Origin: Chlorobiota bacterium
Lineage (GTDB): Bacteria; Bacteroidota; Ignavibacteria; Kapaibacteriales; NICIL-2
NCBI GenBank assembly: GCA_044228285.1
Contig: JBGAVD010000002.1
Coordinates: forward strand, 545,653 to 609,652
DNA length: 64,000 nt
Reading direction: 5' to 3'
Shown: positions 4,411 to 39,963 of the stretch, piece by piece
How the letters are laid out: each line of letters starts with the position of its first letter
How positions within the stretch are numbered: the first letter of the stretch is position 1
The notes under the pieces: generated by a model
The model's database searches: none
Seen by the model: the letters and a program-made list of their open reading frames with translations, nothing else
Told to the model about the DNA's origin: nothing
Program-made: the position numbers and the translations under genes

Positions 4411-4687
4411 CGCTCTGATGCATCCCCTGATCTCAGGAGCGCAGAAAGCTGTTGTCAAGTACGATGTGCCTTAGAACAGCTAGTTGTGGTATCGACTATG
4501 GACACTTGAATCACTGTTGAAGTTCTGACAAAAGACCAATCAACGGCTTAACTGTAGAAGTAGGTTCGTGCCCACAAGCTATCTCTCGAATGACAGTGTG
4601 TAGAACCCAGGTCATGGGCTGTTTACCTGCCTCCAAGTTTCGTATCGAGTCGCTAAGAATTGAATCGAAGTATTGTTTGTCACATCG

Positions 4688-11300: not shown

Positions 11301-11815
11301 CCGGCTGACCCATTTGGTGGAAGGCTCGAAGGAATGACTCCGCTTGCTAGCTTTTCAGCGCTTATAGAATTGTCGGCGATGTTGATTGATTGAATTGCAT
11401 TAACCGCCACAGCGTTTGCAGAATCTGCAATACCAGCACGCTGTGAGTAGAGAGCGTAGGGCACAGCAGTCAATTGAGTCCGCGGCATCATTTCATCGTT
11501 GCTGGCTACTGAAACACCTAAAAAGTATGGACGGTTGAATGTGATGCTGTTTGGTATCGGAACCTGAGAACCTATGATGAGGCTAAAGATTCCTTTGATA
11601 ACGGAGGCGCGGTGCGCCTCCGTGTAGATAGGATCGGTAGAGCCCATAGTGGTGTATAAGCGCAGAGTAATGAGATACTCCCCATCTGGAAAGAGAGTAC
11701 CATCAGTTCTTACTAGCATTCCTTGATAGGAAATGTTACTCGGCACCTTCGCACTGAGTTGAATCGTGCTTGATAACAAGGCAATGAAAAGTACTATGCT
11801 GGAAGTCTTCAACAT
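5357..11815 (-). CDS. Giant (2152 aa) secreted repeat protein, adhesin or tail-fibre-like, with YadA-head/Hep_Hag-like 14-residue beta-roll repeats
   Basis: Signal peptide MLKTSSIVLFIALLSSTIQLSA. The N-domain starts ISYQGMLVRTDG...LRLYTT. It is followed by ten ~58-aa tandem repeats (KLAxGxxPxxLPPxGxAGGDLxGxYPNPxIAxxAVTNxKLAxNAVxTxNIQDAS). Then come four ~330-aa units, each ADNxxxGGNKRG + (ASGxYSxVxGGxxN)n + TAVFNNVDFWLTNNDxxxRxLRFYE...ANQVLxTDGSGxLGWT. No T9SS CTD at its own C-terminus. Confidence 0.85.
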   Translation of the reverse strand: MLKTSSIVLFIALLSSTIQLSAKVPSNISYQGMLVRTDGTLFPDGEYLITLRLYTTMGSTDPIYTEAHRASVIKGIFSLIIGSQVPIPNSITFNRPYFLGVSVASNDEMMPRTQLTAVPYALYSQRAGIADSANAVAVNAIQSINIADNSISAEKLASGVIPSSLPPNGSAGGHLTGSYPNPSLAPGSVTNTALSQNAVETTNLRDASVSSGKIADGSVTREKLAPGLLPTRLPPDGAAAGDLSGSYPNPSIAAAAVTNSKLATNAVGTANIQDAAVTSAKLSPGLLPTTLPPSGVAGGDLSGLYPNPTIAASAVTNSKLAQNAVQTTNIQDGSVTSSKLAAGVIPSSLPPAGSAGGDLVGSYPNPSIANEAISNAKLSINAVASYNMQDASVSTRKIADEAVTLAKLAPGVLPNALPPNGAAGGDLNGSYPNPTLSNASVTSSKLAPNTVGTVHIVDSSVTTQKLANGSVNATKLAVGVIPSTLPPSGAAGGDLAGSYPNPIVANNSVNNAKLTTNAVGTSNLQDASVTSAKLASGVLPTSLPPSGSAGGDLSGNYPNPLLANNAVTNSKVAANAIGTANIQDASVTSSKLASGIIPTSLPPNGAAGGDLSGTYPNPTVGTAVITNAKLASNAVSTTNIQDASVTIAKLATGVIPTTLPPNGAAGGDLSGTYPNPTVGTATITNAKLANNAVGTLNIQDASVTSAKLATGVIPSALPPSGTAGGELNGSYPNPTIANSAVTSSKLAAASVTADKIHSMGATAGQVIKWNGTSWIPGSSGFQFLEEKRDTLTPNDSVPAHALRAFGTAANIDLVLKPKGNGALSSHTADNTEVGGNKRGSYAVDFQRWRDDPTEVASGIYSTLLGGRSNTARGDLSTVCGGFGNKALNQYSAICGGAGNRVESLGGLIGGGTSNFIGPNADMSVVSGGSGNSIYGSHSVIIGGFQNSILSRNSTILGGTNAIIQFPADHSVVYNGSHQVQQCDFSIATPRTFAVNNVDFWLTNNDNSPRTLRFYEKYNSPGLFPNGNVNYVAFKAPNNITDDVEWTLPNSDGTANQVLKTDGSGHLGWTTVSSSSAVSSVNVSGGNTGLTASGGPITSSGTITLGGTLGISSGGTGATNQNGAISNLLPSQSGNGGRVLTTNGTSVSWQVAGGSSLSFWAESRNTSGPNTAVPVHQLRAVGSETRIDLALTPKEDGAICAQVADNTDAGGNKRGGFAVDWQMDRLFPEMVSSGFSSTISGGQSNTASGLGATVSGGYWNESSGDNSTVSGGGKNISSNEASTVGGGYDNVSSGFASTVSGGRLNTATAEFSAVCGGNGNRVRGMYSTIVGGGHLELDSAAEHSFGFNGDGTGELAKSMIISSHHTAVFNNVDFWLTNNDGLNRSLRFYEQDSATGNFPNGANYVGFKAPPVIPSDLVWTLPSSDGTANQVLRTDGSGNLGWTSLNSNTLSYFSESRNTSTPNTTIPVHQISATGTETNIDIAITPKGTGALCTQRADNSSNGGNKRGAFAVDLQRGRTSASQVASGESATISGGWANTSASLHSSVGGGFVNSILSSADGATIGGGLYNNIASYNLIEGKASTIGGGIQNVIQGYASTIGGGDTNTSMGTYNVIAGGAHNLALSTGSTVCGGTYNSAAAEWSTVLGGSNLTLDSLAMHSIGFNGDNDALTKPISITTARTAVFNNVDFWLTNNDGQTRTLRFYEQNENVGPFPNGKNYVALKAPNSLSADLVFTLPDSVGTSGQVLTTNGSGAMNWSTPTFSLQHIAESLHSTAPNATTNVVQLRPTTTGDIDLALSPSGSGAILAQVPDNAIDGGNKRGSMAVDWQMIRSSASQVASGLYSVLSGGAQNLVSGDYAVVTGGEHNSSDGNHSSVGGGAQNNASGSYSVLGGGRQNVASGYSATVCGGLQDTASGVSSVVCGGESNTASGPYSCVVGGYLNSVAADNATVLGGARMTLENSAAGSIGFNGSTSSTVKPISISQSQTAVFNNVDLWLTTNDNSPRSLRFYEKYNTTGAFPNGTNYVSLKAPDSIATDIQFSLPASTPTSSDRMLTSSTSGAMSWGRQVLQFLDQTIDCPTIAASGGTAYVDLTVSGAVVGSTVHLSPREDMEDGICIASVRVSATDTVRIKFVNATASAVNPQAVNIDLSIIQP
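5620..9580 (-). repeat. Coding repeat: four diverged ~1-kb (≈330-aa) units inside the giant gene
   Basis: Four blocks each contain GGNKRG, Gly/Ser-rich 14-residue repeats and the near-invariant AVFNNVDFWLTNND...LRFYE...FPNG.NYV..KAP motif. Boundaries are approximate. Confidence 0.65.
9600..11440 (-). repeat. Coding tandem repeat: ~10 copies of a ~174-nt (58-aa) unit inside the giant gene
   Basis: Ten successive G[STLN]YPNP motifs at ~58-aa spacing in the translation. Boundaries are approximate. Confidence 0.7.
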
Positions 11816-23625: not shown

Positions 23626-25248
23626 CTACTCGATGAAAAAAGTGTTGAGAATTCCTTTACCTTTTAGCTCGATAGGACCGCGTGCCACTACCCGGAACGA
23701 TGCGTCCGATTTTGCTAACTCTTGTACAAACTCTTCAGAACAGTGAATCTTTCCTGCAATACCGTGGCTCTCTAATCGCGAGGCAAGGTTGACAGCATCT
23801 GAGTACATATCGTATACGAATCGTTCGCGCCCCACAACACCGGCAACCACCGCTCCGCAATGAAGACCAATACGAACTCCGAAATCTGAGTGATCAGGAA
23901 GATATGACTTTGCTTCCTCCGGGAGCTTGAGGGTTCGCAACATCTCTTGTGCAGCTTTGGCTAAGCGCTCTGCATGATCATCACATGGCGTTGGCGCACC
24001 GGCAACCGCCATATATCCGTCACCTATCGTCTTGATTTTCTCACAGCCATGTTCTTTCACGATTCGATCGAACACTGAAAAAATACTATCTAGTACACGA
24101 ACGATGAGCTGCGCAGGCATCGTCGCACTCATGGGTGTGAATCCCTTTATATCTGCAAAGAGGATAGAGACGCAAGGAAGATAATCGGCAATTTCGGCCG
24201 AATCTTCCATCATCCGATCAGCAATGACTGCAGGGAGAAGGCGATGAAGTAGCTCCCTCGTAGTTGAGCTTTGAGCTCGTTGAATTTCGAGTTCTTTCTC
24301 GCGTAAAGCTACTCTCCGTTCATATCCATGTTTCTGTGCCATCTGTTGAACCTCAACAGAGTTAGTCTGTTGGGTGAGCTCGTGGTATCGTTCAAAATAC
24401 TCGAGTGCAAGTTTCCATTGCTCCTGCTGTCGATGGAGCAGACTTAGTGACTGTGTGATATAGGTTTGGCTACTAAGAGATTGCATCTCAACACTTAACT
24501 CAAGCGCTTGTTCAAAATAGTGTTGTGCCGTCTGGGTGTTGTAGAGACGAAATGTATCAATCTGATAAACTTGACCTAGACTATGCAGAGCCATGATCAT
24601 GTTCCCCTTGTCGCCAATCTCCTCTGAAATCTGCAGTGCTTCCTCATACAGTCCAACACACTCTTCAAAACAGTCGCGAGAAGCCCAGACTGACGCAATG
24701 TTGGTCAGCACCAGCACTTCGCCATGCCGATCAGCAAGTTTGCGGTATTGATTCAATGATGAATCTAGATACTGAAGTGCAGCATCGTAGTCTTGTATAT
24801 GCACCCTGGAAGAAGCAAGATTGCAGAGGATGTTTGCTCTATATAACTCTAAGTTATGCTCAGTTGCTAAACCAAGAGCTTGATGTAAGTATTCATCTGC
24901 ACGGTTATAGTCGAGTATTTGGGTGTAAACATTGCCGAGGTTACATAAACAGGCAACTTGCAGGTCGGGCTGATGAAGAGTCTCTGCGCAATGCAATACC
25001 TGAGTATAAAGTGCAATTGCGTCTTTGTTTAGTCCACGAATTGCAGCAACATTAGCTTGCTGGTTCAGCACTCGAGCTTGAAGTACTAGGTATTCATCTT
25101 GTACTTTCGACTCATTGCTGGGCATAGCTATCTCGATTTCGTTCAGCGCTCGAGAACACAAGTCCATGGAATCATCGAGTTCTCCCCGTTGTTGTGCGCT
25201 TCGCGCTTCGCTGATCAACAGCTCTATTTTGTTTTTGACATCCATCAT
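23626..25248 (-). CDS. TPR-repeat protein fused to a class III adenylate cyclase catalytic domain
   Basis: N-terminal TPR-like helical repeats. C-terminal cyclase motifs FADIKGFT, KTIGDGYMAV, RIGLHCGAVVAG(VVG). The Lys in KTIGD suggests ATP specificity. Confidence 0.85.
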   Translation of the reverse strand: MMDVKNKIELLISEARSAQQRGELDDSMDLCSRALNEIEIAMPSNESKVQDEYLVLQARVLNQQANVAAIRGLNKDAIALYTQVLHCAETLHQPDLQVACLCNLGNVYTQILDYNRADEYLHQALGLATEHNLELYRANILCNLASSRVHIQDYDAALQYLDSSLNQYRKLADRHGEVLVLTNIASVWASRDCFEECVGLYEEALQISEEIGDKGNMIMALHSLGQVYQIDTFRLYNTQTAQHYFEQALELSVEMQSLSSQTYITQSLSLLHRQQEQWKLALEYFERYHELTQQTNSVEVQQMAQKHGYERRVALREKELEIQRAQSSTTRELLHRLLPAVIADRMMEDSAEIADYLPCVSILFADIKGFTPMSATMPAQLIVRVLDSIFSVFDRIVKEHGCEKIKTIGDGYMAVAGAPTPCDDHAERLAKAAQEMLRTLKLPEEAKSYLPDHSDFGVRIGLHCGAVVAGVVGRERFVYDMYSDAVNLASRLESHGIAGKIHCSEEFVQELAKSDASFRVVARGPIELKGKGILNTFFIE

Positions 25249-26222: not shown

Positions 26223-26906
26223 TCACAGTTTGATGCGTACACCAGCTACCACCGTGAAGGCACTGATCTTCATCACGGCTTCCTTGCTTCCAGGAGGATC
26301 ATCTGGATTGTCAACGTTGGTTAAGCCAATATTGTATCTCAATCCACCAATAACATCCATGGTAGGATTGATAGGGTAGATGGCTTCGGTCCCAAGAATG
26401 AAGCTGACTTCCAGCGAGTTAAATGTACTGTTAGGCAAAGATGTGTCAGAGCTGCTGGAAATGGAGCCGTACGTGTACGTACTGGAACTGTTGTTCCCAA
26501 CAAGTACTCCGATACCTGGACCACCGTACACACAGATTCCTACATTCGAGACAGCAGTAGCTCTGTAGCGAAACATAGGATTGATTTGAAGGTACGATAG
26601 GCGATAGGTTGAGCTACTACTGTATGATTGTCCGAAATTGGATCCCGACTCAGAGAAACCTCCACCTTTACTCATATACCAGAGCTCTCCAAGTATGGAC
26701 ATGTTTCCTTCAGCGTTGATGGCTGACTCTGCTCCAATGCCGAATGATAAGAATGTCGCAGTCGTTGTTGTTTCGCCTTGCAGGAGTGAGTCATGCGAGA
26801 AGTTTGAGAAATTCAGACAAAGCTGTGCTCTGCCAAACATGTCGCCTGCAACAACTGAGGACGAAACGACAACCAAGAGGATCAGTGTACTAACAGTATT
26901 CTTCAT
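26223..26906 (-). CDS. Outer-membrane beta-barrel protein (hypothetical)
   Basis: Signal peptide MKNTVSTLILLVVVSSSVVAG. Ser/Gly/Tyr-rich with alternating beta-strand pattern. C-terminal ...AGVRIKL. Confidence 0.55.
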   Translation of the reverse strand: MKNTVSTLILLVVVSSSVVAGDMFGRAQLCLNFSNFSHDSLLQGETTTTATFLSFGIGAESAINAEGNMSILGELWYMSKGGGFSESGSNFGQSYSSSSTYRLSYLQINPMFRYRATAVSNVGICVYGGPGIGVLVGNNSSSTYTYGSISSSSDTSLPNSTFNSLEVSFILGTEAIYPINPTMDVIGGLRYNIGLTNVDNPDDPPGSKEAVMKISAFTVVAGVRIKL

Positions 26907-27523
26907 ACGAACTCCTTATTATGAAAAATGTAAAAACTGCAAGCTGCTCGTGTTGTGATGTTGATAGAGTAGTTTTTGTTGGCAATACTGTATGATGAGC
27001 TTGGTCCAAGCCGTTGCTTTTCTTCGGTCTTGTTGCTTTCTTCATTCCCCTGTGTGTACTAACAGTTGTGTCGCAGAGACACATAAGTCCACTCTATTCA
27101 GAGCTTTAGGAAGATCTTAGAGTGCCTGCGAATATATAAGACATGTTGGTATCATTACAAGCTTTTTCTCGAAAAGTTGATGAAGTGCCGGGATAGTAGT
27201 AGAGGTCAACTCCTTTTTTTTGCTACGCGTCGCCAGCCGTCTTGCAACTTGGATGCTACGCGATCTATGGACAATCGTCAGTTCAGCAACAGTGACTCAA
27301 GAGGGAGGTGTTAGTTGTTGATCTATGTTGCGTTCCTACCTCATCCACATCGAGCTGCCTGGCGAATTGAGTCAAATTGCCGACCGACAATCTGTCTAGC
27401 TAGCCATACCACTGAGTTCCTTTTGAACTCACGGAGATCATACGGTGCAACAAGAGTACTAGAAAGGTTCGAAGATTTTCGTTGGTTCAAAGGTCGCGTA
27501 GGAACTGGATTGAACGAAGAAAT

Positions 27524-29404
27524 TTAGAATATCGTATATAGTATCAATAGTGCGAGAACTGTTCCCACAACGACGGCAGCAAAGCCGAAGAGGCGCAAGC
27601 CAATTTCTACTGGCAGTGGAGTAGGTTTGGTGACCACGTAGTCCTTTGTGTTGCCGGTTTCATTGTAGCGTTTCCATTGGTCCATTCGTTCATGTCGCAT
27701 TTCCTCCTCACTGATTTGACCATTGAAGATGACGAAATCCATAGGGAATTTCTCTACTCGTAGGTGCGTGTTAAAGAAGTGAATCGTAAAGATGAATCCT
27801 ACAGCGAGGAGTGCTTCGTCGGAGTGGATGATGGTTGCTACATTAAACACCCAACCAGGTAAAAAACCTCCAAAGAACTCAGGCATCCATAGTATGAGAC
27901 CACTTGAGCCGATAACGCCGACGCCCCAGAATACAGCCAGAAAGTCAAACTTCTCCCAATATGTCCAACGATCAAACGTTGGCTTTGGCCCTTTGAAAAA
28001 GAACCACTTAAACATTGCGATCATGTCGCGAAGATCGCGACGGTTTGGAAACAGGCTATCAGGTCCAAACAAACGCTGCAACATGGTCTCTTTCGGCGCA
28101 CGCTTCGTGATGAGGAAGCGTATACTCATGCCGAGTGTGACAAAGAAGTATCCGAAGGTGACAACGGCTGCCAGACGGTGGATGAGACCAGCCGAGGCAA
28201 CACCGCCGAGAAGGTCCATGAGTGCATGTCCCCATTGGGTCTCGTTGAACTTCAAGGGTAGACCAGTTATAGCAAGGGTTAAGAAACTTGTGATGACAAA
28301 AATGTGGAGGATGATGTGTATTGGACGGAAACGACGATACACTTTCTGCGCTGCATGCTGTTTTGTTACTTCGGTGGCTGCGCCACCGAAGAGGGCTGCA
28401 TTGGCAAGATGCTTCTTCTCAACAAAGCCTCGATACATCCATAGTAATGAGTGCAACCAGAAGAATAGAAACGTACCAGCCAGTAATCCATTCATGCTAA
28501 TGGTCACCCAAAAGAGCAGAGGATTGGCTTGTCGGTTCCCAGGTTCAGCATGCGGAAGGTATTTGGCAAAGCCGTTACCTGCATCCTTATGACACTGCCG
28601 ACAGGTCGTTGTGAGGTTGTTAGGATGTATCGATGAATGAGGATCATCCTTTGGGAGAATCTTGTGCGACTCATGGCAATCACTACAACCAGCAACTTGT
28701 TCAGGATGACCTAGGCGAACGTTCTTGCCGTGGTAGCTTTCGAAATACGAAATTGGTGCGATTGTGGTGACTTTGTTACGCGCCATTTTATCGGCATCAG
28801 CATGACACTTTAAACACGCTTGAGTATGAAACATGCGGCCTTGCTGGACGTTGTCTATGCGATCGATGGCGTGCAAACCATGGCAATCCACACAGCCCGG
28901 AGCATCCTTACTGCCTTCTTTTATAGCTTTGAAGTGACTCGATTCGAAGAAGGACGATTGCTTGTCATGACATTGAGTGCAGAGTTGGGCAGTGGCAATT
29001 TTGTCGTTCTTGATGGAGCGTAAGCCGTGTATCTCCGAGTGACACTTAGCGCAGGTAATTGGCAGACGTTTTGAGTTGTGTACGCTTTTCTCGTGATCGT
29101 TGACCACAGAAGAGTGGCAGCTCACACACTGTGTTGGCTTGAATGAAGCAACGCACTTCTTGTCTGTACCCTCCGCTGCAAATGGAGCCTTAGTGTGATC
29201 TTCGATATGGCATGCTGCGCATTGCAGTGACTTGTGTACTGAGCTGTTATATAAAGCAGAGTACTTATGATCACCATGGCATTTCTGACAATCTGAGTTT
29301 GACTGCGTATGTGTTTGAGTGTTCTGCGCACGCGTATTGGTACCGCTCATTACAAGTATCACCAGGCAGGCGGCTAGTTTCGAGAGTTTGGATAGTACTG
29401 ACAT
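27524..29404 (-). CDS. Nine-heme c-type cytochrome fused to a membrane dihaem cytochrome b (FdnI/HydC-like) domain. CbcL-like quinol oxidoreductase.
   Basis: Signal peptide MSVLSKLSKLAACLVILVMSG (internal ATG at 29404; the ORF is open to 29491). Nine CxxCH motifs (CQKCH, CAACH, CVSCH, CAKCH, CTQCH, CVDCH, CLKCH, CSDCH, CRQCH). The C-terminal ~330 aa have at least four hydrophobic helices with conserved His, resembling the b-type cytochrome of formate dehydrogenase or hydrogenase. Confidence 0.8.
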   Translation of the reverse strand: MSVLSKLSKLAACLVILVMSGTNTRAQNTQTHTQSNSDCQKCHGDHKYSALYNSSVHKSLQCAACHIEDHTKAPFAAEGTDKKCVASFKPTQCVSCHSSVVNDHEKSVHNSKRLPITCAKCHSEIHGLRSIKNDKIATAQLCTQCHDKQSSFFESSHFKAIKEGSKDAPGCVDCHGLHAIDRIDNVQQGRMFHTQACLKCHADADKMARNKVTTIAPISYFESYHGKNVRLGHPEQVAGCSDCHESHKILPKDDPHSSIHPNNLTTTCRQCHKDAGNGFAKYLPHAEPGNRQANPLLFWVTISMNGLLAGTFLFFWLHSLLWMYRGFVEKKHLANAALFGGAATEVTKQHAAQKVYRRFRPIHIILHIFVITSFLTLAITGLPLKFNETQWGHALMDLLGGVASAGLIHRLAAVVTFGYFFVTLGMSIRFLITKRAPKETMLQRLFGPDSLFPNRRDLRDMIAMFKWFFFKGPKPTFDRWTYWEKFDFLAVFWGVGVIGSSGLILWMPEFFGGFLPGWVFNVATIIHSDEALLAVGFIFTIHFFNTHLRVEKFPMDFVIFNGQISEEEMRHERMDQWKRYNETGNTKDYVVTKPTPLPVEIGLRLFGFAAVVVGTVLALLILYTIF

Positions 29405-29429
29405 TGTGCAAATCCAGAATGAATAATGT

Positions 29430-30626
29430 TTAGCCGCAGAGTCCGCCCGCGCGTTTCTTGGAAGCAATCTTAATTTTCTGTACGTATGCATCTTTCGGGA
29501 ACTGCTTTAAGATCTCCGATGGAGGTGCTGCAATGTTCACTTTGTGTCCAGCTACGGTTTTGCCGGCAAAGAGTGAATTCCAGTTCGTTAGGCCTTTCTC
29601 AAGGATGTAGAGGTTTGCAACACCTTGAACCTTTAGATACTCCCAAGCTTTAACTGCTACAGTTTCATTGTCTGAAACAAGGACAACTACGCCTTGCGCT
29701 GGAAGTTGTGCGTACGGTGATACTTTCTTCGCATCGAGAAGATCCTCGAGAGTTACGTTGAGTGCACCGTTCAGATGAAACTTCTCAAACTCATCCGCAC
29801 CACGCAGGTCTAGACACACAAGCTTGATACTTGCTTCATTGTAGGTCTTCACGTATTCGAGCGGATGTATAAACACAGCCTTTGAGCGGAGTAGTGGCGA
29901 GTAGGTGTTCTGCATGATTTCCCACTTGCGCACTGGGTCGGGTTGGCCTATGAGCCAGACGCATGCAGCTGCTAGAACGAGTGCGCCGGAACCCAGCTTA
30001 TAGGATCGTTTCGAGATTGTCCACGACATCGGTGTGTCAGTGCCACGATTTCGGAAATACTCTTCTGTTTTCTCCGCAGCGTAGAACATGACGAGTGCCA
30101 TGATCGTGACGCCGAACACGGTAGCACCAACTGACCATCCAAGCCATTCATTGAGGATGTAGCGATCGGTGAACGAGGAGTACCAAAAGTCTTCGAAGCT
30201 TGACAGAGACTCTCCGAAGATTCCTGCACCAATGACTGTTCCGATGAGAAAGGCGAGGCCGTCGATCTTGAAGCTTGCAGTTGCGACGACTGAAGTTCCA
30301 GGACAGTAGCCTCCGATGATGAAGCCAACTCCCATGATCAAGCCACCAATGATTCCTGGCCAGAGAAATGTCTGATTAACCGATAGTTGTGAGAAGTCTA
30401 AGTAGCCCAATCCCGCTGCGCCAAACGTAAGTAAACAAGCCACGATGATGCCCGTGAACATAGTTTTCAGAACCGTCATATCTTTTAGATAGAACTGCGC
30501 TGCGAGACGTCGGGAGTCTCCAAAGCCTGCAATCTCCAGGGCGAAGCCGAAGGCTGAGCCTATTAAAAAGAAGACAAAGTATCCGCCTGCTTTACCCAGA
30601 ATGCTAATGATGTCGATAGGTAACAT
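29430..30626 (-). CDS. YeeE/YedE (TsuA-type sulfur/thiosulfate transporter) half fused to a C-terminal rhodanese-like domain
   Basis: GYCPGT motif in a TM helix, a YeeE/YedE signature. After one further TM helix there is a ~100-aa rhodanese-fold-like region (...VVVLVSDNETVAVKAWEYLKVQGVANLYILEKGLTNW). The start is ATG 30626 (GGAG 11 nt upstream) or TTG 30641. Confidence 0.75.
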   Translation of the reverse strand: MLPIDIISILGKAGGYFVFFLIGSAFGFALEIAGFGDSRRLAAQFYLKDMTVLKTMFTGIIVACLLTFGAAGLGYLDFSQLSVNQTFLWPGIIGGLIMGVGFIIGGYCPGTSVVATASFKIDGLAFLIGTVIGAGIFGESLSSFEDFWYSSFTDRYILNEWLGWSVGATVFGVTIMALVMFYAAEKTEEYFRNRGTDTPMSWTISKRSYKLGSGALVLAAACVWLIGQPDPVRKWEIMQNTYSPLLRSKAVFIHPLEYVKTYNEASIKLVCLDLRGADEFEKFHLNGALNVTLEDLLDAKKVSPYAQLPAQGVVVLVSDNETVAVKAWEYLKVQGVANLYILEKGLTNWNSLFAGKTVAGHKVNIAAPPSEILKQFPKDAYVQKIKIASKKRAGGLCG

Positions 30627-30651
30627 TGTCGTCTGCTCCAAGTGTGATTAA

Positions 30652-31173
30652 TTAGTCAGCCCACAAACGGCGAACGAAGTACGCGACGGCATATCCGCCG
30701 GCAAAGACGCTGAACATGAATGCCCAGCTACCCAGAGATAGAACGGCACCTCCGGACAGTGCCTGACCTGATGTGCATCCTCTCGCTAAACGAGCACCAT
30801 AGCCCATAATGACACCTCCAACTAACGCTGCTATGATTCGTTGTGTATTGGTGATGCGTGCACCTTTAAAAATCTCTACCTTAAGTCGGCCATTGAAAAA
30901 GGCCGATGCCATACCTCCAGCAAAGGTTCCAAGCAACAAGAGCACGCTAGCATGATCGAGAGGATTGCGGTCGCCTGCTCCCATTGCCGCGAATGTTCCG
31001 ATGGCATCCACATGTGAAGACCAAACGATTTTCGTGAGCGCAACCTGAATACGACTAATAGCGCCAGAAGCGCCCAGACCACTATGGGTCAGCGCGAAGG
31101 CGCTGAAAAGCACCACTCCAAGAATGCTTCCAGCGAAGTACGGGTTCGTAACGGGTTTAGGAATCTTTTTCAT
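30652..31173 (-). CDS. YeeE/YedE family protein (other half of a split TsuA-like transporter)
   Basis: ATG start. 173 aa with 4–5 hydrophobic helices and a GCTSGQA motif, the second YeeE/YedE Cys motif. 10–25 bp from the neighbouring genes. Confidence 0.75.
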   Translation of the reverse strand: MKKIPKPVTNPYFAGSILGVVLFSAFALTHSGLGASGAISRIQVALTKIVWSSHVDAIGTFAAMGAGDRNPLDHASVLLLLGTFAGGMASAFFNGRLKVEIFKGARITNTQRIIAALVGGVIMGYGARLARGCTSGQALSGGAVLSLGSWAFMFSVFAGGYAVAYFVRRLWAD

Positions 31174-31193
31174 AATATTCTTAGCTCCTAGAA

Positions 31194-32621
31194 TTATTTC
31201 GAAGTCACTTGGACTGGATCACGACTATACCCGAGTTCTTTCCACTTGAAGCGACCATTGTCTGAATGACACTGTTGACAACTGAGTGCCTTGCTCTGCG
31301 TGGTAACCATGTGGGTAATAGGCCAGTACATTTTGGTTGGTGTAAAACCAAAATTGCCACTATATGTTAAGCCAGCGAGTGCTGAACCCTTCTTTAAGGC
31401 AGCAGCCCAGTCGAACTTAGTCCAGTAACCACCTTCTCCACTAGTGAGTGGTGGTACGAGTATGCCATTCACAAGATCAAATGGTTGTTCAGCGAAGTGA
31501 ACCTTGAAAGGCCAGATCTTAGCTTTAGCATTTGAGCGACTACCAATGGGTTTATTGATGTGGTGTACGGAATCGGCATCGAGCTTGTCGCCAAGTATGT
31601 AACGCTCCATCTTACCTGTGTACCAAGCATAAGTTGGTACTACGTCTTCCTCGTACTGAAACTCACCTTTAATCTTCAAGTACTCGTGCGGATTGTCTTT
31701 TCGCGTGGAGTCTCCCGCCTTCGACCAATCCCAAGCCATCTTGGTAGGGAGCTTGCGCGCGAACTCGGGGATATGACAGGTTTGACAAGCGATGCGCAAA
31801 GAATGCTGATTGAGGCGATGGTCTGCGTGTGGTTTCTCTGTGTGACAGTTCTCGCAACCAAATCGCGCAACCTTTGTTTCGTCGGAGTAGGTAGCATTCA
31901 CTTTTCCCGGGACAACGTGGCGCTCGGTCTTGTGACAATCCACACATTGGAAGTTGAGCTTACCCATATGATAATCCAGCTCCTGATTCGCATTCAACAA
32001 GGATTCATCCAAATCTCCGTGCTTAACACCCATACCACCTCCGCCACTGAAGTGACAGGTTCCACAGTTTTCGCGAGTTGGCCGATGAACGCTACCAGCC
32101 ACAAGTTTTAAATCCACATTCTTGTTTGGCATTCCACTACGACCTTTTGAATAGCTACCGGATCCGTCATGGCAAATCAAACAGTCGACGTTCTCCTTCT
32201 TGCTGAAATCAAAGTCTGCGTTGTCGAATCCATAGCCAGCATGGCAGGCGGAGCATGAGATCCAGTTACCAATCACACTTATGCAGAAGTTATTGACTTG
32301 GTTTTTCTTGCCTAATGGAATGGTCTTGCCATTGCGTACGGCATCACCACTAATCCAGGTCCAGTGTGCAGTTTTCATGACTTCGTCTGCTGCCTTCGGG
32401 TGACACTTCAGACAGCTCATGGTCACCTTCTGCGGAGAGTCAATGGAGTCACGATAGTAGGCACTATGATCTAAATGCGGAATCTCGCGTCCTTGCAGTG
32501 GATTCAATGCCACTGGCTTGATTGGTGTCTCAGTTCTCGCACCTCTATTGCAAGCGCTGCTCGTGAACAAGAGAACTACGGTACAACCAAACAATAGTAC
32601 GCGTGCAAGAACCGACATCAT
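31194..32621 (-). CDS. Octaheme c-type cytochrome (octaheme tetrathionate reductase/OTR-family-like)
   Basis: Eight CxxCH motifs (CLKCH, CSACH, CLICH, CGTCH, CVDCH, CENCH, CQTCH, CQQCH) in ~475 aa. Signal or lipoprotein-like peptide MMSVLARVLLFGCTVVLLFTSSAC. The start is 32621/32618, with the ORF open to 32675. Confidence 0.8.
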   Translation of the reverse strand: MMSVLARVLLFGCTVVLLFTSSACNRGARTETPIKPVALNPLQGREIPHLDHSAYYRDSIDSPQKVTMSCLKCHPKAADEVMKTAHWTWISGDAVRNGKTIPLGKKNQVNNFCISVIGNWISCSACHAGYGFDNADFDFSKKENVDCLICHDGSGSYSKGRSGMPNKNVDLKLVAGSVHRPTRENCGTCHFSGGGGMGVKHGDLDESLLNANQELDYHMGKLNFQCVDCHKTERHVVPGKVNATYSDETKVARFGCENCHTEKPHADHRLNQHSLRIACQTCHIPEFARKLPTKMAWDWSKAGDSTRKDNPHEYLKIKGEFQYEEDVVPTYAWYTGKMERYILGDKLDADSVHHINKPIGSRSNAKAKIWPFKVHFAEQPFDLVNGILVPPLTSGEGGYWTKFDWAAALKKGSALAGLTYSGNFGFTPTKMYWPITHMVTTQSKALSCQQCHSDNGRFKWKELGYSRDPVQVTSK

Positions 32622-33381
32622 TCGCTCTCGGTATGTTGGTCGGAACTCTTGTTGATTTATCATGCGTGTTCTCATAAGTCACCTTTGTTGGAAGGGGAGT
32701 GTCTTTGATTCATGCTGGTCTTCGAAAGAGGCATGTTATCGCCATGGAGATGGGTCATGACATTCTCACGAATGCCAGTTTTCAGATTCATAGCAGGGCG
32801 TTGCCCGCTTGTCTGCGATCCCGATGGGTAAATGCTCGTTAGACTTCGCAGTGTTGTTGAAAATACCTGTGCACTAAAAGCGGGGTGCGAATTCACTCGG
32901 CAAGGATCTGTTGCGGCGAATAATAGCTCGTGTTGATATCTTCTGAGCCTTCTTTTGCTGTTTAGGGAGAGTATGGGAAACGGAACCTTCATTTCATCTT
33001 TCCGGGCTCGAGTTTGTAAGCAGAACTATCGACCAGAAAACTAATTAAGATAATTTTGTCCTAAAATATGCAATAGGTCAGAAAAGAACGAAGAAAAGTT
33101 TTCAATAGCAAGTCTGCAGCATCGAACACCCGGGTAGCCGAGACGCCATTCTGCCGAACTTAGATTGTGAAGTCGAGCATACATTGCTGCTCTGTGTAAC
33201 GAAACATGGGGTCGCTGGCTTCTAAGTGCTTATAAAGATAGACACATAGTTGCCTTGAAAAGCTTGGTGCTGAACGTGAACAGGTCTCTTACTCATTTTA
33301 CGAGTGTGTAACTGAGATTGAATGGACTATGCGAATTCAACCTCTAGTTTTCATTATCAGATTGCACATCACAAAGTTCTT

Positions 33382-33432
33382 GCGTAACCATTCAGTTACG
33401 TGTTATATTGCTACGCGTAACCGATCGGTTAC
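33382..33432. promoter_or_regulatory. Two adjacent inverted repeats sharing GTAAC half-sites (CGTAAC-N6-GTTACG and GTAACC-GATC-GGTTAC). Candidate ArsR-family operator.
   Basis: Read directly. A perfect 16-bp palindrome GTAACCGATCGGTTAC sits at 33417–33432, 33 bp before the arsR-like ATG. A second IR at 33382–33399 has the same half-sites. They lie in the divergent region between the regulator and the cytochrome operon. Confidence 0.5.
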
Positions 33433-33464
33433 TGGAAAGTTCGAGATTAGAAGCTAGGGCATCA

Positions 33465-33830
33465 ATGCGACGTGACGTCTTTCAGGCAATAGCAGATCCA
33501 AACCGTAGGGCTATTCTTGCGGAGTTGGTGAAGCGGCCACTCAATGTTCAGGCAGTAGCGAAGCAGTTCTCGATAAGTCGTCCAGCTGTATCAAAACACA
33601 TGAAGATATTGGCTGAATGTGGCCTGGTGGTCTATACTCAGAAGGGACGTGAGCGATACTGCGAGGTACAGATACAGAAACTCAATGAGGTGTCTGAATG
33701 GGTGCAACAATACCGCGAATGGTGGTCTCAAAGTATGGACTCTTTGGATGCCTACTTACAGGAAGTGCAGAAGAAAGATGCAGTGGGCCCGAGCTCGAAC
33801 AGAGAAGCTGATGCCGTGAATGAGAGCTAG
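33465..33830 (+). CDS. ArsR/SmtB-family transcriptional regulator
   Basis: HTH region VFQAIADPNRRAILAELVKRPLNVQAVAKQFSISRPAVSKHMKILAECGLV is typical of ArsR-family wHTH. ATG at 33465. A TTG at 33408 would overlap the palindrome. Confidence 0.8.
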   Translation: MRRDVFQAIADPNRRAILAELVKRPLNVQAVAKQFSISRPAVSKHMKILAECGLVVYTQKGRERYCEVQIQKLNEVSEWVQQYREWWSQSMDSLDAYLQEVQKKDAVGPSSNREADAVNES

Positions 33831-33994: not shown

Positions 33995-34534
33995 ATGAGC
34001 AATAGCCAAACCACCGTAGAAATTCTGGCAGGTGATCTGATCATGAAGCGCCGTATTGCAGCGCGCCGCGAACTAGTCTATGCTGCGTGGACCCAAGCGC
34101 AACAGCTGGCGCGCTGGTTTGGTCCACACCACGTGGTTATATCTGAATGTTCTTTTGATGGATATGTAGGCGGACAAATACGTATTGTGATGCTGGCGTC
34201 TGACGGCAGTCTTTACCCAATGAATGGAACGATCGTTGAGCTCAGCGAGAATGAACGACTGGTGATGAACTTTGATCTTAGAGATCATCCACCAGAGTGG
34301 CACAGCATGATGGCTGAACAGTATCGCGCAAACGGTGGAAACGGAGATATGACGCCGATCGTTCGCATCGAAGTGGATTTTATCGAAAGCTCCAAGCAAG
34401 GGGAGCACACGGATCTCATCATCCGACAGTGCTTCAACTCTGATCCTGAGAGTCAAACCTATCTCAAAATGGGCTCTGTTGATGGGTGGTCGCAAAGCTT
34501 TGAAAAACTCCAAGAGCTCTGTCAACAAAGCTAA
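33995..34534 (+). CDS. SRPBCC-superfamily protein (AHSA1/activator-of-Hsp90-ATPase-like domain)
   Basis: RELVYAAWTQAQQLARWFGP is typical of AHSA1-like SRPBCC proteins, which are commonly encoded next to ArsR regulators. Confidence 0.75.
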   Translation: MSNSQTTVEILAGDLIMKRRIAARRELVYAAWTQAQQLARWFGPHHVVISECSFDGYVGGQIRIVMLASDGSLYPMNGTIVELSENERLVMNFDLRDHPPEWHSMMAEQYRANGGNGDMTPIVRIEVDFIESSKQGEHTDLIIRQCFNSDPESQTYLKMGSVDGWSQSFEKLQELCQQS

Positions 34535-35820: not shown

Positions 35821-36083
35821 GGATTAAATGAGACTGAATGGGCAAGACAAGTGCTCCAATCTAGCGCACACGATTTGTCTGCACAAGGAACACTTCAGCT
35901 TCGATACTGTTGCGCAATAGTGTTATTGATCCTCTTGTACAATGTAGCACAGTAGGCCGTGATCTTTGTGCGCATGGATCAGCTTGCGCTCTTTGTCGAA
36001 GCTCTCGCGGTATTGCAGTTGTATCTCTTCGTGTGTAAACCCGAAGAGTGCATATTTGCAGAGAACTCTCAAAGGGAATTACT

Positions 36084-37925
36084 ATGAAGCAACAAGCTGG
36101 TTTCTTGTGGGTGATGATTGTCTTATGCATTTCGGGACTCGAAGCGCAGCCACGCTTTCAACTTGGAATAAACTTCGATGCCCAGAATACTGGTGCTTTC
36201 GTTAATGTGGCATTGCATTCACATCGTTACTCGAAGGCTGCAGGATATGATAGTCTTGGTTATCCAACCAGTGACTTTGAATATTTACTCATGGATGCAC
36301 GACCTGTCGCAGAATGGAGCTCGAGTATTGATGATCCTGAGCAGTACCGTGTGAACTTCTCTGGTCGATATGCTTGTCGCTTCCGCGGACAAGCTAACGT
36401 TAGTGCTCCCTGGGTAGCGTCAACTATTGAGAATCTTAGTTATGACGCAACCACGAACACGACCATCTTTGAGCTTGTCATTGGTGGATATCCAAATGCT
36501 AGTCACGGCTTAGTCAATTTGGTGTTTACAAACACGCGACGTACCGCTGCAGATACTCTTCGCAGTGGCATCACGGATCTTGTGGTGAATAGACCGGGTT
36601 ATGCCCTGAACACGAACAAAGTGTTTACCGACGAGTTCTTGGCTTTGTGCACGAGTGCGGACTTTGCCTGTTATCGTTACTATGGTGTTCAGAATGTTTG
36701 GGATGGAGAGCCTGTGTATCCAAAGAAAACACGTTGGGCTGATCGCAAGCCTGTGAATTATTCTGCGCAGATGCCAGTGCCAGAGTTGGGACAATCCGAG
36801 GCGTGGAGCTGGGATCACATCATTCAACTGGCTAATATTCTCAAGAAGGATATGTGGATCTGTGTGCTAATGTCGGCCGATTCAGACTACGTCATCCAAC
36901 TAGCCACCATGCTCAAGAATCAACTTAACCCGAGCATCAACATCTATGTTGAAAATAGCAATGAAGTATGGAGTCCGACATTTATGGCCTATGGCGCGTA
37001 CAATGCAGCCGACGCAAAGGCACGAGGAATTGGTTTTGATCAGAACTACGCTCGCCGCACCATTGAGTTAAGCCAACTCTTCGCTTCGGTTTTTGGTGCT
37101 GACCAGATCAATAAGCGTATACGGGTAGTCTTGGGAACTCAACAAGGCTACAGTGGCCGTAGCGATGCGCATATACAGTACATCCGCGCACAGTATGGAG
37201 AGCCCAAGAATTATATCTATGCACTCAGCCCTAGTCTTTACTTCGGATCGAAAAATGCAAATGCGACGCAAGCTGTCGAGATCGCCAAGGGAATGAAAGA
37301 TGATATTGATGATATGATCAATAATAGCTCAAGTCCATTTTACCGAGACAACCACTTCAGAAGAGCGCGCAACCTTGAACTGCTTGGCGGATGTGCATCG
37401 TATGAAGGAGGACCAGGTGTTCCAAGTTCACTCTCGGCTAATCTTGGAAATCAGATACTTGCACATCGAACGAGCGAAGTAGCAGATGCGATACGCTACA
37501 ACTACTTGGAAGGGTGGCGCAATCTTGGCGGAGGCTTAGCGTGTTTCTTTACTCTCGTATCATCCTACAATCGCTACGGATGCTGGGGAGCTACAGATGA
37601 TTACAAGTATCCTGATCGCAATTCTAAAATGCAAGCTCTTCGTGATCTCATTGCAACGACTACGGTGGACGTTGTTGATACAAACTCTAGCCCATCGCAG
37701 TTTGGTCTCAAGATCTTTGTCAACGCTGTCCAGACCTCGTTGGAGTTTGGTCTGGAGAATCCGATGTCGCCATGCTCCATAGAAATCTATTCCGTACTAG
37801 GGGAGTGCGTGCACCGCGGGAACGATTGCAGAATTGATATCTCAATGTTTCCCAATGGTTGGTATGCCGTCAAACTCCGTGATTCAACTGAGACTCAGCT
37901 CGGCACTTTTCGCATTTGCCGCTAA
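36084..37925 (+). CDS. Secreted protein with T9SS C-terminal sorting domain. The N-domain may be a (beta/alpha)8 glycoside-hydrolase fold (weak).
   Basis: AGGG-type RBS. Signal peptide MKQQAGFLWVMIVLCISGLEAQ. An internal ENSNEVWSP motif is reminiscent of the NEP catalytic-acid box of clan GH-A. C-terminal ~75 aa are CTD-like. Confidence 0.6.
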   Translation: MKQQAGFLWVMIVLCISGLEAQPRFQLGINFDAQNTGAFVNVALHSHRYSKAAGYDSLGYPTSDFEYLLMDARPVAEWSSSIDDPEQYRVNFSGRYACRFRGQANVSAPWVASTIENLSYDATTNTTIFELVIGGYPNASHGLVNLVFTNTRRTAADTLRSGITDLVVNRPGYALNTNKVFTDEFLALCTSADFACYRYYGVQNVWDGEPVYPKKTRWADRKPVNYSAQMPVPELGQSEAWSWDHIIQLANILKKDMWICVLMSADSDYVIQLATMLKNQLNPSINIYVENSNEVWSPTFMAYGAYNAADAKARGIGFDQNYARRTIELSQLFASVFGADQINKRIRVVLGTQQGYSGRSDAHIQYIRAQYGEPKNYIYALSPSLYFGSKNANATQAVEIAKGMKDDIDDMINNSSSPFYRDNHFRRARNLELLGGCASYEGGPGVPSSLSANLGNQILAHRTSEVADAIRYNYLEGWRNLGGGLACFFTLVSSYNRYGCWGATDDYKYPDRNSKMQALRDLIATTTVDVVDTNSSPSQFGLKIFVNAVQTSLEFGLENPMSPCSIEIYSVLGECVHRGNDCRIDISMFPNGWYAVKLRDSTETQLGTFRICR

Positions 37926-38160: not shown

Positions 38161-39645
38161 TTAGTGCAGAACCTGCACTCGTCGACAGAACTTTGTGACA
38201 CCTTGATACTTCAGAACAACGAGATAGCTCCCAGAAGCAAGCTGCGAGCAATCTACTTGTGCTGTTAGAGTCTGACTTTCGAATTCTAGATGTAAGGCAG
38301 TAGTTCCTTCAAGACTGAGAAGCTCGACCGAATTGAATGGGTTTTCAGAGAGCAGCAGCAGCTGAGAAGAACTAGGATTTGGATAGATCTGCAGACCTGC
38401 AGACTCTTCGAGAGCTACTGGCGCAGCAGGACTGTACTCAACAGCGCCTATAGATCGCGGTGAAGCATAGACTTTACCATAGAAGTCTTGCAGTTCTTCT
38501 TGCAAATCCGTGCTACCAGCTTTAATCGCTGGAGAGCCTTCTTTCAATCGGAACGAGATCGTATCTTCAAGCAGTGGGTTGCGGTTCTGCAGACCATTCA
38601 GTTCAGTGGCTGGTAGATTCGGACCTGACCATCGCGAGTCATCTGGATTGTACCAGATATTGTTCGCAAAGCGAAAAGACGAGGGATCAGTATTTGGTCC
38701 TACGTTTACAGCAACGGTACCTGTAGTGCCGTATACGACAATGTTGTTCCGAAAGGAATTGTTAGCGCAGGGGACAAAGCCAGCTGATGTGTTCTCTTGA
38801 AGAATGCGAAAAGCCCAACGAGAAGGTCTGTGAATGGTGTTGTTCTCAACTCTACACTCGATGGCACCTACAAAAGCGATTGGGGTTACTGCACCAACAA
38901 AGATGTTCGCAAAGACCCGAATGTTCTTTGCCTCATACTTTGCATCAAGTGGTCTGAAGAAGGCTAAACCGGTTGAGCCTCCTACGTTGATAGCGCGTTC
39001 ACCACAGTTATAAAAACGATTTGCGTGAATGAGAATGTCGGAGGATGCACCCTTTGCTTGCACCGCATTGGATCCAGCACGTTCGAACAGATTGTTGTGG
39101 AAGAGTCCGCGGTGACATCCTACCATGTCAACCAGAGATCCACCATTTGCTCCGTTCTGAAAAACGCATTCCCTCACTTCAAAGTCGTCGACTCCTGAGA
39201 GTTTGAGTTCGTCATTGTTTCCAGTAGCCGACATACTACGCCACGTACAACGAACAATATGGATGTGGTGTGTTGGGGTTTCAAGAGTTCCTGCATCATC
39301 AATGTTTACACCATTTCCCGTCTGTTGCTCAAAACTCAAACCCTCAATACGGACGTAGGATGCCTCGCTCATTTGAAAAGCCTGTGATCCACCTCGAAAC
39401 ACAGCGGAACCTTGCTGCTCCGCCATAATTGTAATCCACTGACTCTGGCTACCGTGTAGATTATTGATTGCATTATCTCCGCTATGTACACCTGAGTGCA
39501 CCAGTATCGTATCGCCAGCACGTGCCTGTTGAGCTGCTAGTTGCAGTCGTGGATAGGTCTGCCCGGTCCCTACATGGAGCACTGCGGCTTGGGTCGTTAT
39601 ACTGGCAAAAAGCATGGCTATGCTGAGCAGGGAACACTTTATCAT
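38161..39645 (-). CDS. Right-handed parallel beta-helix (pectate-lyase-fold) protein with T9SS C-terminal sorting domain
   Basis: Signal peptide MIKCSLLSIAMLFASITTQA. Repeated beta-helix rungs (NN..xG, IHAN, VENN, FRNN, FANN). C-terminal LQIYPNPSSSQLLLL...GSYLVVLKYQGVTKFCRRVQV is a T9SS CTD. The ORF is open to 39714. Confidence 0.7.
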   Translation of the reverse strand: MIKCSLLSIAMLFASITTQAAVLHVGTGQTYPRLQLAAQQARAGDTILVHSGVHSGDNAINNLHGSQSQWITIMAEQQGSAVFRGGSQAFQMSEASYVRIEGLSFEQQTGNGVNIDDAGTLETPTHHIHIVRCTWRSMSATGNNDELKLSGVDDFEVRECVFQNGANGGSLVDMVGCHRGLFHNNLFERAGSNAVQAKGASSDILIHANRFYNCGERAINVGGSTGLAFFRPLDAKYEAKNIRVFANIFVGAVTPIAFVGAIECRVENNTIHRPSRWAFRILQENTSAGFVPCANNSFRNNIVVYGTTGTVAVNVGPNTDPSSFRFANNIWYNPDDSRWSGPNLPATELNGLQNRNPLLEDTISFRLKEGSPAIKAGSTDLQEELQDFYGKVYASPRSIGAVEYSPAAPVALEESAGLQIYPNPSSSQLLLLSENPFNSVELLSLEGTTALHLEFESQTLTAQVDCSQLASGSYLVVLKYQGVTKFCRRVQVLH

Positions 39646-39963
39646 GGCTTTTCCAAAGTTGAGGGTTTTGCAAATCTCGTTGCTGTTCTGAACACGATCC
39701 GGCATCAAATCCAAGGAGCTTCAGAACCGGCCCCTTAAAATTAGGTGAGCGTTGTTTAACTGTCATAAAAAATATCATCTTAGAGCAAAAGAGCGTCCAG
39801 TAGTGGCAGCTGTGGGCAATGATGCGCTTTGGCACCAGTCGAGCAGCTCGCGGAGCGAGACTGCGAGCATGACAAAAAGCCTCCTATCACTCAAGTAGGC
39901 TCAGAATAAAGCGATAATCCAAGGGTATAGGTTGTCGGTGTATAAATGTCAGAAATGGTAGCT

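Follow-up and report, generated by a model that had tools for sequence, protein, structure and literature searches.

A four-gene operon on the minus strand of a Chlorobiota contig (GenBank assembly GCA_044228285.1, contig JBGAVD010000002.1, positions 545,653 to 609,652) brings together protein families of respiratory electron transfer and of sulfur import. The whole 64,000-nucleotide stretch that was analysed is called the window here, and the operon occupies its region 27524-32675. The four genes, in the order A-B-C-D, encode an OTR-family octaheme c-type cytochrome, a PmpA-like half of a split YeeE/YedE channel, a PmpB-like half that continues into a rhodanese-fold domain and a cysteine-bearing tail, and a nine-heme protein that is probably a cytochrome c/b fusion. 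There is, in our judgement, about an even chance that this module is a quinol-linked periplasmic sulfur reductase combined with a covalent sulfur relay across the membrane. Each part comes from a known family, and the logic would be like that of the Sox and Sud-Psr systems; the combination is apparently new.

The four open reading frames (ORFs) are co-directional and contain 8, 0, 0 and 9 CxxCH motifs, respectively, just as the first-pass annotation of this DNA had recorded. Gene A (31194-32675) has a longest ORF of 493 amino acids with eight CxxCH motifs; gene B (30652-31173) encodes 173 amino acids and has none; gene C extends from 29430 to either a TTG at 30641 or an ATG at 30626; and the longest ORF of gene D (27524-29491), with nine CxxCH motifs, overlaps C. 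The true start of C is most likely the ATG, because the resulting 398 amino acids are the exact length of more than 100 homologues, and D likely starts at the ATG at 29404, giving 626 amino acids, because a signal peptide then opens the protein and its size matches that of the homologues (611-639 amino acids). Gene C divides into a membrane part (residues 1-227, 29946-30626), a rhodanese-fold domain (residues 228-360, 29547-29945) and a C-terminal tail with a conserved cysteine (residues 361-398 and the stop codon, 29430-29546). Gene D divides into a signal peptide and nine-heme domain (residues 1-295, 28520-29404) and a domain with six transmembrane (TM) helices, putatively of cytochrome b type (residues 296-626, 27524-28519). 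With the likely starts, the gaps are 20 bp between A and B, 25 bp between B and C (10 bp if C starts from TTG) and 25 bp between C and D. A scan of 26800-33500 for sigma-70 promoters and intrinsic terminators gave no excess over shuffled controls; Bacteroidota-type promoters were outside the scan, and the result is uninformative on co-transcription.

The case for a covalent relay starts with gene C. Its rhodanese domain is recognized by PF00581 with 38.9 bits against a cutoff of 22.2, is modelled by AlphaFold2 (AF2) with a predicted local distance difference test score (pLDDT) of 85-92, and has Foldseek TM-scores of 0.6-0.77 to single-domain rhodaneses, including Wolinella Sud (1qxn). The position of the catalytic cysteine, however, is taken by S318 (29673-29675), and it is serine or alanine in all 116 close and all 66 diverse homologues. 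The rhodanese fusion noticed in the first pass is therefore real as a fold and lacks the catalytic residue. The domain is predicted to be catalytically dead and periplasmic, and annotation as an active sulfurtransferase would be wrong, because the catalytic cysteine is absent family-wide.

The only invariant cysteines in the 116 homologues of C are C108, in the membrane part, and C397, the penultimate residue (29436-29438). The latter ends a conserved tail of the form ...FPKD..KIK...KKR.GGLCG-COOH. The pattern GG[LV]C[SG] forms the very C-terminus in 119 of 120 homologues and is GGCG in distant relatives, and a search of 1.84 billion cluster representatives yielded 109 full-length sequences, 94 of which have a cysteine within the last three residues. 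In the AF2 model, pLDDT drops below 50 at residues 390-398. We read this tail, by analogy, as a flexible sulfur-carrier arm resembling the swinging arm of SoxY, which is characterized by a flexible, glycine-rich C-terminus that carries a cysteine (Sauvé et al. 2007, cited by PMC11237559). A search with the rhodanese and tail part alone returned only eight fragments, all generically named.

The location of the arm is suggested by comparison with YeeE, which has nine TM helices and a cytoplasmic C-terminus that is fused to the cytoplasmic YeeD in 8j4c (PMC11582611), so that the N-terminal half of YeeE must span the membrane from outside to outside. The membrane part of C has six hydrophobic segments, those of the PmpB-like half of such a channel and two further TM helices. 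Lysine and arginine abound in its loops at 36-55 and 185-208, which follow helices 1 and 5; the loops at 75-86 and 143-165, which follow helices 2 and 4, are acidic or neutral. This points to a topology with both termini outside, and therefore to a periplasmic rhodanese domain and arm, which are predicted to share their compartment with OTR and with the heme domain of D. In two gammaproteobacterial loci of the survey described below (L057 and L079), C is split, and the rhodanese-arm protein opens with one signal-anchor-like helix (MNAPFNLRVLGAGILLAAAGALALYGQPD...) that matches helix 6. An active cytoplasmic rhodanese was considered as well, and was ruled out by the missing catalytic cysteine, the topology and these split variants.

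Genes B and C both match PF04143 (Sulf_transp, gathering cutoff 27), with 77.2 and 60.1 bits, and cover complementary halves of the model, B its positions 176-309 and C its positions 12-199. B has about four TM helices with both termini inside, judging by hydropathy and homology. The two cysteine motifs that had been picked out in the first pass are indeed there: C133 of B (30775-30777, ARGCTSG) pairs with Cys293 of Spirochaeta thermophila YeeE in the 8j4c/6leo alignment, and C108 of C (30303-30305, GGYCPGTS) is at the position of YeeE Cys91. ARGCTSG is found in all 72 loci that carry B, and C108 is conserved in 116 of 116 homologues. Both cysteines are indispensable in the S. thermophila protein (PMC7449682); by equivalence, C133 of B would be on the periplasmic side and C108 of C at the centre or on the cytoplasmic side. 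In pmpA-pmpB, proposed to form a heterodimeric equivalent of YeeE, the gene for the C-terminal half comes first (Li, Dahl and colleagues, PMC11582611). By that description, the sequences of B and C place them in the PmpA/PmpB type of split YeeE, each with one invariant cysteine.

The first-pass annotation had described the pair as a split YeeE/TsuA. The YeeE part of this description is borne out by PF04143; membership in TsuA proper was rejected, as the protein is split into two genes, the alignment of C homologues has no conserved cysteine at the position of YeeE Cys22, and the TsuA equivalog models NF041049 and NF052577 score 23 bits against a cutoff of 645 and 29 bits against 400. Because of these scores, B and C are filed as PmpAB-type.

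In some relatives the invariant cysteines of C give way to in-frame TGA codons. TGA, with GGC and then a true stop codon after it, stands in place of the arm cysteine codon in L046 and L085 (Caldilineaceae), L054 (Chloroflexi) and L065 (Neomarinimicrobiota), at L046:11065, L085:12030, L054:11429 and L065:11789. The codon for the channel cysteine (GGF-x-PGTS) is TGA at L053:10949 and L085:11112, with homology on both sides. All six codons are TGA, never TAA or TAG, and a GC-rich hairpin lies 16-17 nt downstream of each. Those at the four C-terminal sites have a common 7-bp stem with two compensatory pairs (RNAalifold and manual inspection), and one internal hairpin has a GGUC loop. We predict that these codons specify selenocysteine (Sec), including a C-terminal ...GGG-U-G-stop. 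That the predicted Sec takes the place of cysteine at precisely these two invariant positions argues strongly, on comparative grounds, for a part of both residues in covalent redox or chalcogen chemistry. Selenoprotein forms of YeeE/YedE (GUxSG) and of TIGR04315 are recorded in a recent review; the rhodanese selenoprotein motifs listed there are UxxS, UxxG, CxU and UxxxxU, with no C-terminal GGUG (PMC13188914).

These observations bear on two other explanations. The simpler one is that free tetrathionate is reduced to free thiosulfate, which is then imported as an ion in the manner of TsuA, with an ordinary rhodanese attached and with no carrier role for the terminal cysteine. The OTR assignment of gene A (see below) is solid, the YeeE family is known from experiment as a thiosulfate importer (PMC7449682), and the synteny is compatible with uptake of the product. 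This model has no explanation, however, for the invariant terminal cysteine and its predicted Sec replacements, and it is at odds with the serine or alanine at the catalytic position in 66 of 66 orthologues, with the predicted periplasmic location of the rhodanese domain and with the TsuA scores; we think it unlikely. Tetrathionate reduction with thiosulfate uptake, as first suggested for this operon, has thus held up at the level of the OTR and YeeE families, and is still conjecture at the level of function.

The other explanation is selenium or tellurium handling, in which the octaheme protein would reduce selenite or a Se-S compound and the YedE-like channel, together with the arm, would import selenium. 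The best NCBIfam matches of B and C are in fact the selenium-associated YedE models NF033796 (E=1e-13) and TIGR04112, and Sec forms of channel and arm are predicted in relatives, but the model scores are far under the cutoffs (51 against 350 and 18.5 against 200). YedE-like proteins have been implicated in selenium transport (PMC11582611); nevertheless, most carriers have cysteine at these positions, there are no selenium-utilisation genes nearby in the window, and a quinol-linked octaheme enzyme of respiratory scale would be disproportionate to the need for a trace element. This makes the selenium explanation very unlikely.

Gene A matches the OTR family model TIGR04315 with 535.5 bits (cutoff 375) and PF11783 with 192 bits, and it aligns with the Shewanella OTR structure 1SP3 at 421 bits (E=4e-125, about 47% identity). 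Its CxxCH motifs start at residues 88, 141, 165, 204, 244, 274, 297 and 466. K123 (32307-32309, GKKN), which is outside any CxxCK motif, aligns with Lys56 of 1SP3, the ligand of heme II (PMC3769277), and GK(K/R)N is invariant in our alignment A1. So is NNFC, which contains C131 (32283-32285), the sole conserved cysteine outside the heme motifs. The sequence thus identifies gene A as a periplasmic OTR-family octaheme enzyme that keeps the lysine-ligated active-site heme; the first assignment to OTR, rather than to a nitrite/hydroxylamine clade, is sustained. Translation likely starts at M19 or M20 (32621 or 32618), 18-19 codons into the longest ORF, and from there the protein begins with a hydrophobic signal or anchor, MMSVLARVLLFGC...FTSSAC. 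The segment up to Cys42 may serve as a lipoprotein signal. A canonical lipobox, L-T-A-C, is present in the Opitutaceae orthologue.

Gene D encodes a signal peptide and CxxCH motifs at residues 39, 62, 93, 118, 142, 171, 197, 240 and 268. The heme domain has Pfam matches to Cytochrome_C7, c3_2 and NrfB-like, and a profile of the D orthologues (alignment A3) searched against PDB matched MtrA (6r2q_A) and NrfB, i.e., multiheme c domains only, leaving the membrane domain unmatched. By hydropathy, the C-terminal part has six TM segments with cytoplasmic loops rich in lysine and arginine. Six of its histidines (H318, H367, H409, H527, H542 and H547) are invariant among the orthologues, and PF01292 (HydC/FdnI cytochrome b) is found in 10 of 12 orthologues, with the best E value of 3.6e-8. 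We read the membrane domain as a site for quinol or quinone. Geobacter CbcL likewise has nine CX2CH motifs followed by six TM helices, there of the HydC/FdnI type (PMC6295460). By architecture, and as likened to that published description, D is a CbcL-type fusion of nine c-hemes with a six-TM domain that is probably a cytochrome b, in agreement with what the first-pass annotation had proposed.

To see how far this gene set extends, we scanned with the OTR alignment one genome per species, which gave 589 relatives; the best 80 loci, designated by L numbers, were examined and searched by tblastn with B, C and D of the window. The same components are present in about 66 of the 69 OTR loci that were informative, which come from at least 10 phyla, and among loci with enough downstream flank B and C are missing only in L031, L064 and L086. 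Three diverse homologues of C, from Bacteroidota, Opitutaceae and Bdellovibrio, are all in an A-B-C-D operon. The synteny that was to be looked for after the first pass is thus found across phyla, and chance adjacency of the four genes is ruled out by its recurrence in dozens of genomes.

There are two arrangements. Type 1, with the gene order of the window, is seen in Bacteroidota, Ignavibacteria/Chlorobiota, Opitutaceae, Bdellovibrio and Myxococcales. In type 2 the order is OTR, a seven-heme protein of 800-920 amino acids with PF01292 (81-98 bits), B and C; its carriers are Chloroflexota, Planctomycetota, Gammaproteobacteria, Spirochaetes/Leptospirales, Gemmatimonadales, Kiritimatiellae, Syntrophobacteraceae, Neomarinimicrobiota and others. 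Thus, gene order and the lineage of the c/b cytochrome vary, and all four functions are kept. In a neighbour-joining tree of OTRs (midpoint-rooted, without support values and therefore no more than indicative), the window is inside a tight type 1 clade, type 2 is broad, and the Shewanella-type enzymes form a clade of their own, apart from that of the window. The closest locus is L007, from a Chlorobiota metagenome-assembled genome, at 74% identity. In another such genome, from Kiritimatiellae, OTR, a multiheme domain and the PF01292 cytochrome b are fused in one ORF of 1099 amino acids (L047:5869-9168), which argues for direct interaction of OTR with the c/b cytochrome. In the gammaproteobacterial loci L079 (10805-12868) and L057 (10425-11585), the multiheme partner of OTR has no cytochrome b domain; downstream of both modules there is an MtrA-like decaheme cytochrome gene, and L079 also has an MtrB/PioB porin there. 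This suggests that the exchange of electrons is across the outer membrane in these loci, and not with the quinone pool.

Other genes accompany the module in particular groups. About 28 type 2 loci (within L031-L085) have, some 400 bp directly upstream of otr and in the same direction, a gene for an ArsR-family helix-turn-helix (HTH) protein with one conserved cysteine, LHxxIC(Q/S)A..DP.R (for example, L035:5620-5961 and L032:5616-5939); we regard its product as a candidate regulator that could make the module responsive to sulfur. In the Ignavibacteria loci L012, L015, L018 and L019, genes for a thioredoxin lipoprotein and an outer-membrane channel (FadL/Toluene_X) are upstream of the module, and one for a MarR-type regulator is downstream (in L018, at 3592-4176, 4380-5909 and 11159-11602). 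In Opitutaceae, the upstream region L003:73-5914 encodes two rhodaneses, two thioredoxins, a CoADR-rhodanese of the persulfide-reductase type, ArsR and FadL. The Opitutaceae and Ignavibacteria contexts are compatible with a sulfane-sulfur or persulfide cargo.

The same data speak to the idea that the octaheme protein reduces or detoxifies nitrite or hydroxylamine and that the membrane proteins serve some unrelated transport. Shewanella OTR acts on both compounds in vitro (Atkinson et al. 2007, as cited in PMC4911364 and PMC11237559), but the partners conserved in at least 10 phyla are sulfur-family proteins with reactive cysteine or Sec and not nitrogen-cycle genes, and the local contexts include rhodaneses, thioredoxins and CoADR-rhodanese. 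We therefore attach hardly any probability to this idea.

Returning to the reductase and relay, the parts could work together as follows. D would oxidise menaquinol and hand the electrons to periplasmic OTR. The redox potentials are about +198 mV for tetrathionate/thiosulfate and about -74 mV for menaquinone, and, on these values, reduction is the favourable direction with menaquinol. The figure for the tetrathionate/thiosulfate couple, about +198 mV, is reportedly due to Kurth et al. 2015. OTR would reduce a sulfur compound with an S-S bond, the best candidate being tetrathionate, either free or as an S-thiosulfonate or persulfide adduct of the tail cysteine. Thiolates, and selenolates more so, readily react with tetrathionate and polysulfide; for this reason the arm cysteine is expected to form Cys-S-S-SO3- or Cys-S-S(n)- adducts in the periplasm. 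The arm would then bring the bound sulfur within reach of both OTR and the channel mouth, with OTR acting on or beside the adduct, and sulfur would be relayed from C397 to C133 of B, then to C108 of C, and on to the cytoplasm. Such a relay from arm to channel would mirror the route from SoxYZ to SoxT1A: PmpAB relatives and SoxT1A have been proposed as importers of sulfane sulfur, SoxT1A from persulfidated SoxYZ (PMC11582611). In lucinid symbionts otr adjoins a divergent soxY/soxZ pair (PMC11237559), which is a second and independent form of association between OTR and an arm carrier. We also entertain, tentatively and as something that is rather less probable than its opposite, the broader claim that in most bacteria OTR works on an adduct carried by a tethered Cys/Sec arm and not on free tetrathionate, the soluble Shewanella enzyme being atypical and derived.

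The module might also run in the oxidative direction, as in SoxXA-SoxY, with OTR coupling thiosulfate or sulfide/polysulfide to the arm, D passing electrons to quinone, and the bound sulfur being imported to be oxidised or assimilated in the cytoplasm. We find this decidedly unlikely. At about +198 mV, thiosulfate oxidation cannot reduce menaquinone, the quinone used by Bacteroidota and most anaerobic carriers; anaerobes (Anaerolineae, Syntrophobacteraceae, Ignavibacteria) are numerous among the carriers; and no SoxB-like or cytoplasmic sulfur-oxidation genes are linked to the module. These points have to be set against the SoxY-like motif of the arm, the position of otr next to soxY/soxZ in symbionts that are sulfur oxidisers (PMC11237559), the import of sulfur for oxidation by the YeeE-like SoxT1A (PMC11582611), and the MtrAB-like conduits of some gammaproteobacterial carriers.

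Several considerations weigh against our interpretation as a quinol-linked reductase with a covalent relay. Although the parts, their synteny, the dead rhodanese site and the tail cysteine are observed, the substrate, the direction and the chemistry of the arm are what we infer. The topology of C was derived from hydropathy, homology and the split variants, and the AF2 model of its membrane half has a moderate pLDDT of 54-83. A permissive Rfam scan of the five loci with predicted Sec found no match to a selenocysteine insertion sequence (SECIS) family. D of the window has no significant match to PF01292 at E<=0.05, and its FdnI matches are weak (E about 4e-4). The electron source of the module is not universal, given the gammaproteobacterial MtrAB-like variants. 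No gene for a cytoplasmic sulfur acceptor is next to the module in the window. Finally, OTR is reported to reduce nitrite and hydroxylamine as well in vitro (cited in PMC4911364).

Comparison with characterized systems shows what is shared and what is added. The OTR of Shewanella oneidensis (SO_4144, 1SP3) has in common with gene A the eight CxxCH motifs, the Lys56 equivalent and the NNFC cysteine; Shewanella-type OTRs, however, lack the PmpAB, rhodanese and cytochrome b neighbours. In S. algae (L087:4814-8401) otr comes after genes for a small cytochrome c and a DUF3373 protein, and in Malonomonas it stands alone, without partners. The S. algae locus also has a divergent molybdopterin/iron-sulfur/NrfD (Psr/Phs-like) operon near otr. 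With YeeE/TsuA and PmpA/PmpB, the window proteins share the Sulf_transp match, the equivalents of Cys293 and Cys91 and the position of the C-terminal-half gene in front. The module differs from these YeeE/TsuA-YeeD/TsuB and PmpA/PmpB systems in having neither a YeeD/TusA partner nor a conserved Cys22 equivalent, in the two additional TM helices, periplasmic rhodanese-fold domain and cysteine arm of C, in the multiheme genes on either side, and in its low scores against the TsuA models.

The likeness to Sox (SoxXA, SoxYZ, SoxT) is that of a periplasmic heme enzyme, a flexible glycine-rich cysteine arm and a YeeE-family importer (PMC11237559, PMC11582611). The sequences and folds are unrelated, with OTR in place of SoxXA and a rhodanese fold in place of the SoxY fold; there is no SoxZ gene in the window, and the carrier domain of C lacks the SoxY fold, so that the likeness to SoxY is functional only. 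Unlike in Sox, the carrier is fused to the channel, and the link is to the quinone pool via the c/b cytochrome, probably in the reductive direction. CbcL of Geobacter sulfurreducens (GSU0274), compared by its description, has the same nine CX2CH motifs and number of TM helices, which in CbcL are of HydC/FdnI type (PMC6295460), but it serves extracellular electron transfer to low-potential acceptors, whereas D is dedicated to an OTR operon. The Sud-Psr system of Wolinella succinogenes couples, as proposed here for the module, a periplasmic sulfur carrier of rhodanese fold to a quinol-linked periplasmic sulfur reductase; Sud, however, is soluble and has the canonical cysteine in the active-site loop, the reductase is a molybdoenzyme, and no channel is attached.

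In the literature outside subscription journals we found no description of a cluster of OTR with a c/b quinol dehydrogenase and PmpAB, nor of an inactive periplasmic rhodanese with a SoxY-like Cys/Sec arm, nor any statement that such a module, and not the soluble enzyme of Shewanella, is the usual setting of OTR. The opinion expressed in the first-pass annotation, that this is not a described system, therefore still stands within that coverage, as no paper was found to link otr with a YeeE/YedE cluster. The nearest published statement concerns Thermosulfurimonas, where otr has a neighbouring cytochrome b gene (PMC4911364).

Apart from the four genes, nothing in the window appears to belong to the module, and the neighbours are unrelated: cargo proteins of the type IX secretion system (T9SS), a TonB-dependent receptor and a histidine kinase. 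An ArsR-type HTH gene (33408-33830, plus strand), divergent from the operon, was considered as its regulator and set aside, since it is paired with an AHSA1/SRPBCC gene (33995-34534, plus strand) and lacks the cysteine that is conserved in the ArsR genes upstream of otr in type 2 loci; it is probably unrelated. On the other side, 617 bp downstream of D, an outer-membrane beta-barrel protein (OMP_b-brl_2, 227 amino acids) is encoded at 26223-26906 on the minus strand; no conservation of this neighbour next to the module was noticed. About 2.3 kb downstream of the module there is a fusion of tetratricopeptide repeats with an adenylate/guanylate cyclase catalytic domain (23626-25248, minus strand). 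The T9SS C-terminal sorting domain (Por_Secre_tail) is present in the proteins encoded at 2299-4410, 36048-37925 and 38161-39714, as would be expected for DNA from Bacteroidota or the FCB group, and an ORF of 2152 amino acids (5357-11815, minus strand), with the DUF5907 repeat as its sole Pfam match, looks like a large surface or repeat protein.

A crystal structure of OTR has been available since 2004, and metagenomic surveys count otr as a marker of tetrathionate respiration in many phyla (e.g., PMC9040765). In the loci sampled here, the common context of OTR is the partnered one and not the soluble arrangement of Shewanella; most of the sampled diversity of this enzyme is tied to a putative quinol dehydrogenase of its own and to a sulfur channel that bears an arm, which gives it a testable physiological context. 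The family of C, which makes up 209 clusters (50% identity, E<=1e-30) and has been annotated until now merely as "YeeE/YedE family protein" or "rhodanese-related sulfurtransferase", can be defined by its inactive rhodanese domain and C-terminal GGC(G/S) arm. As to whether YeeE and PmpAB channels conduct ions or relay sulfur covalently, the predicted occurrence of Sec at both the channel and the arm cysteine argues for covalent chemistry. If the broader and less probable claim made above, that OTR works on sulfur bound to the arm, is true, the module would do with quinol, and in the reductive direction, what SoxXA-SoxY does by oxidation, and its integration into a PmpAB channel would couple reduction to a cysteine-to-cysteine relay of sulfur into the cell.

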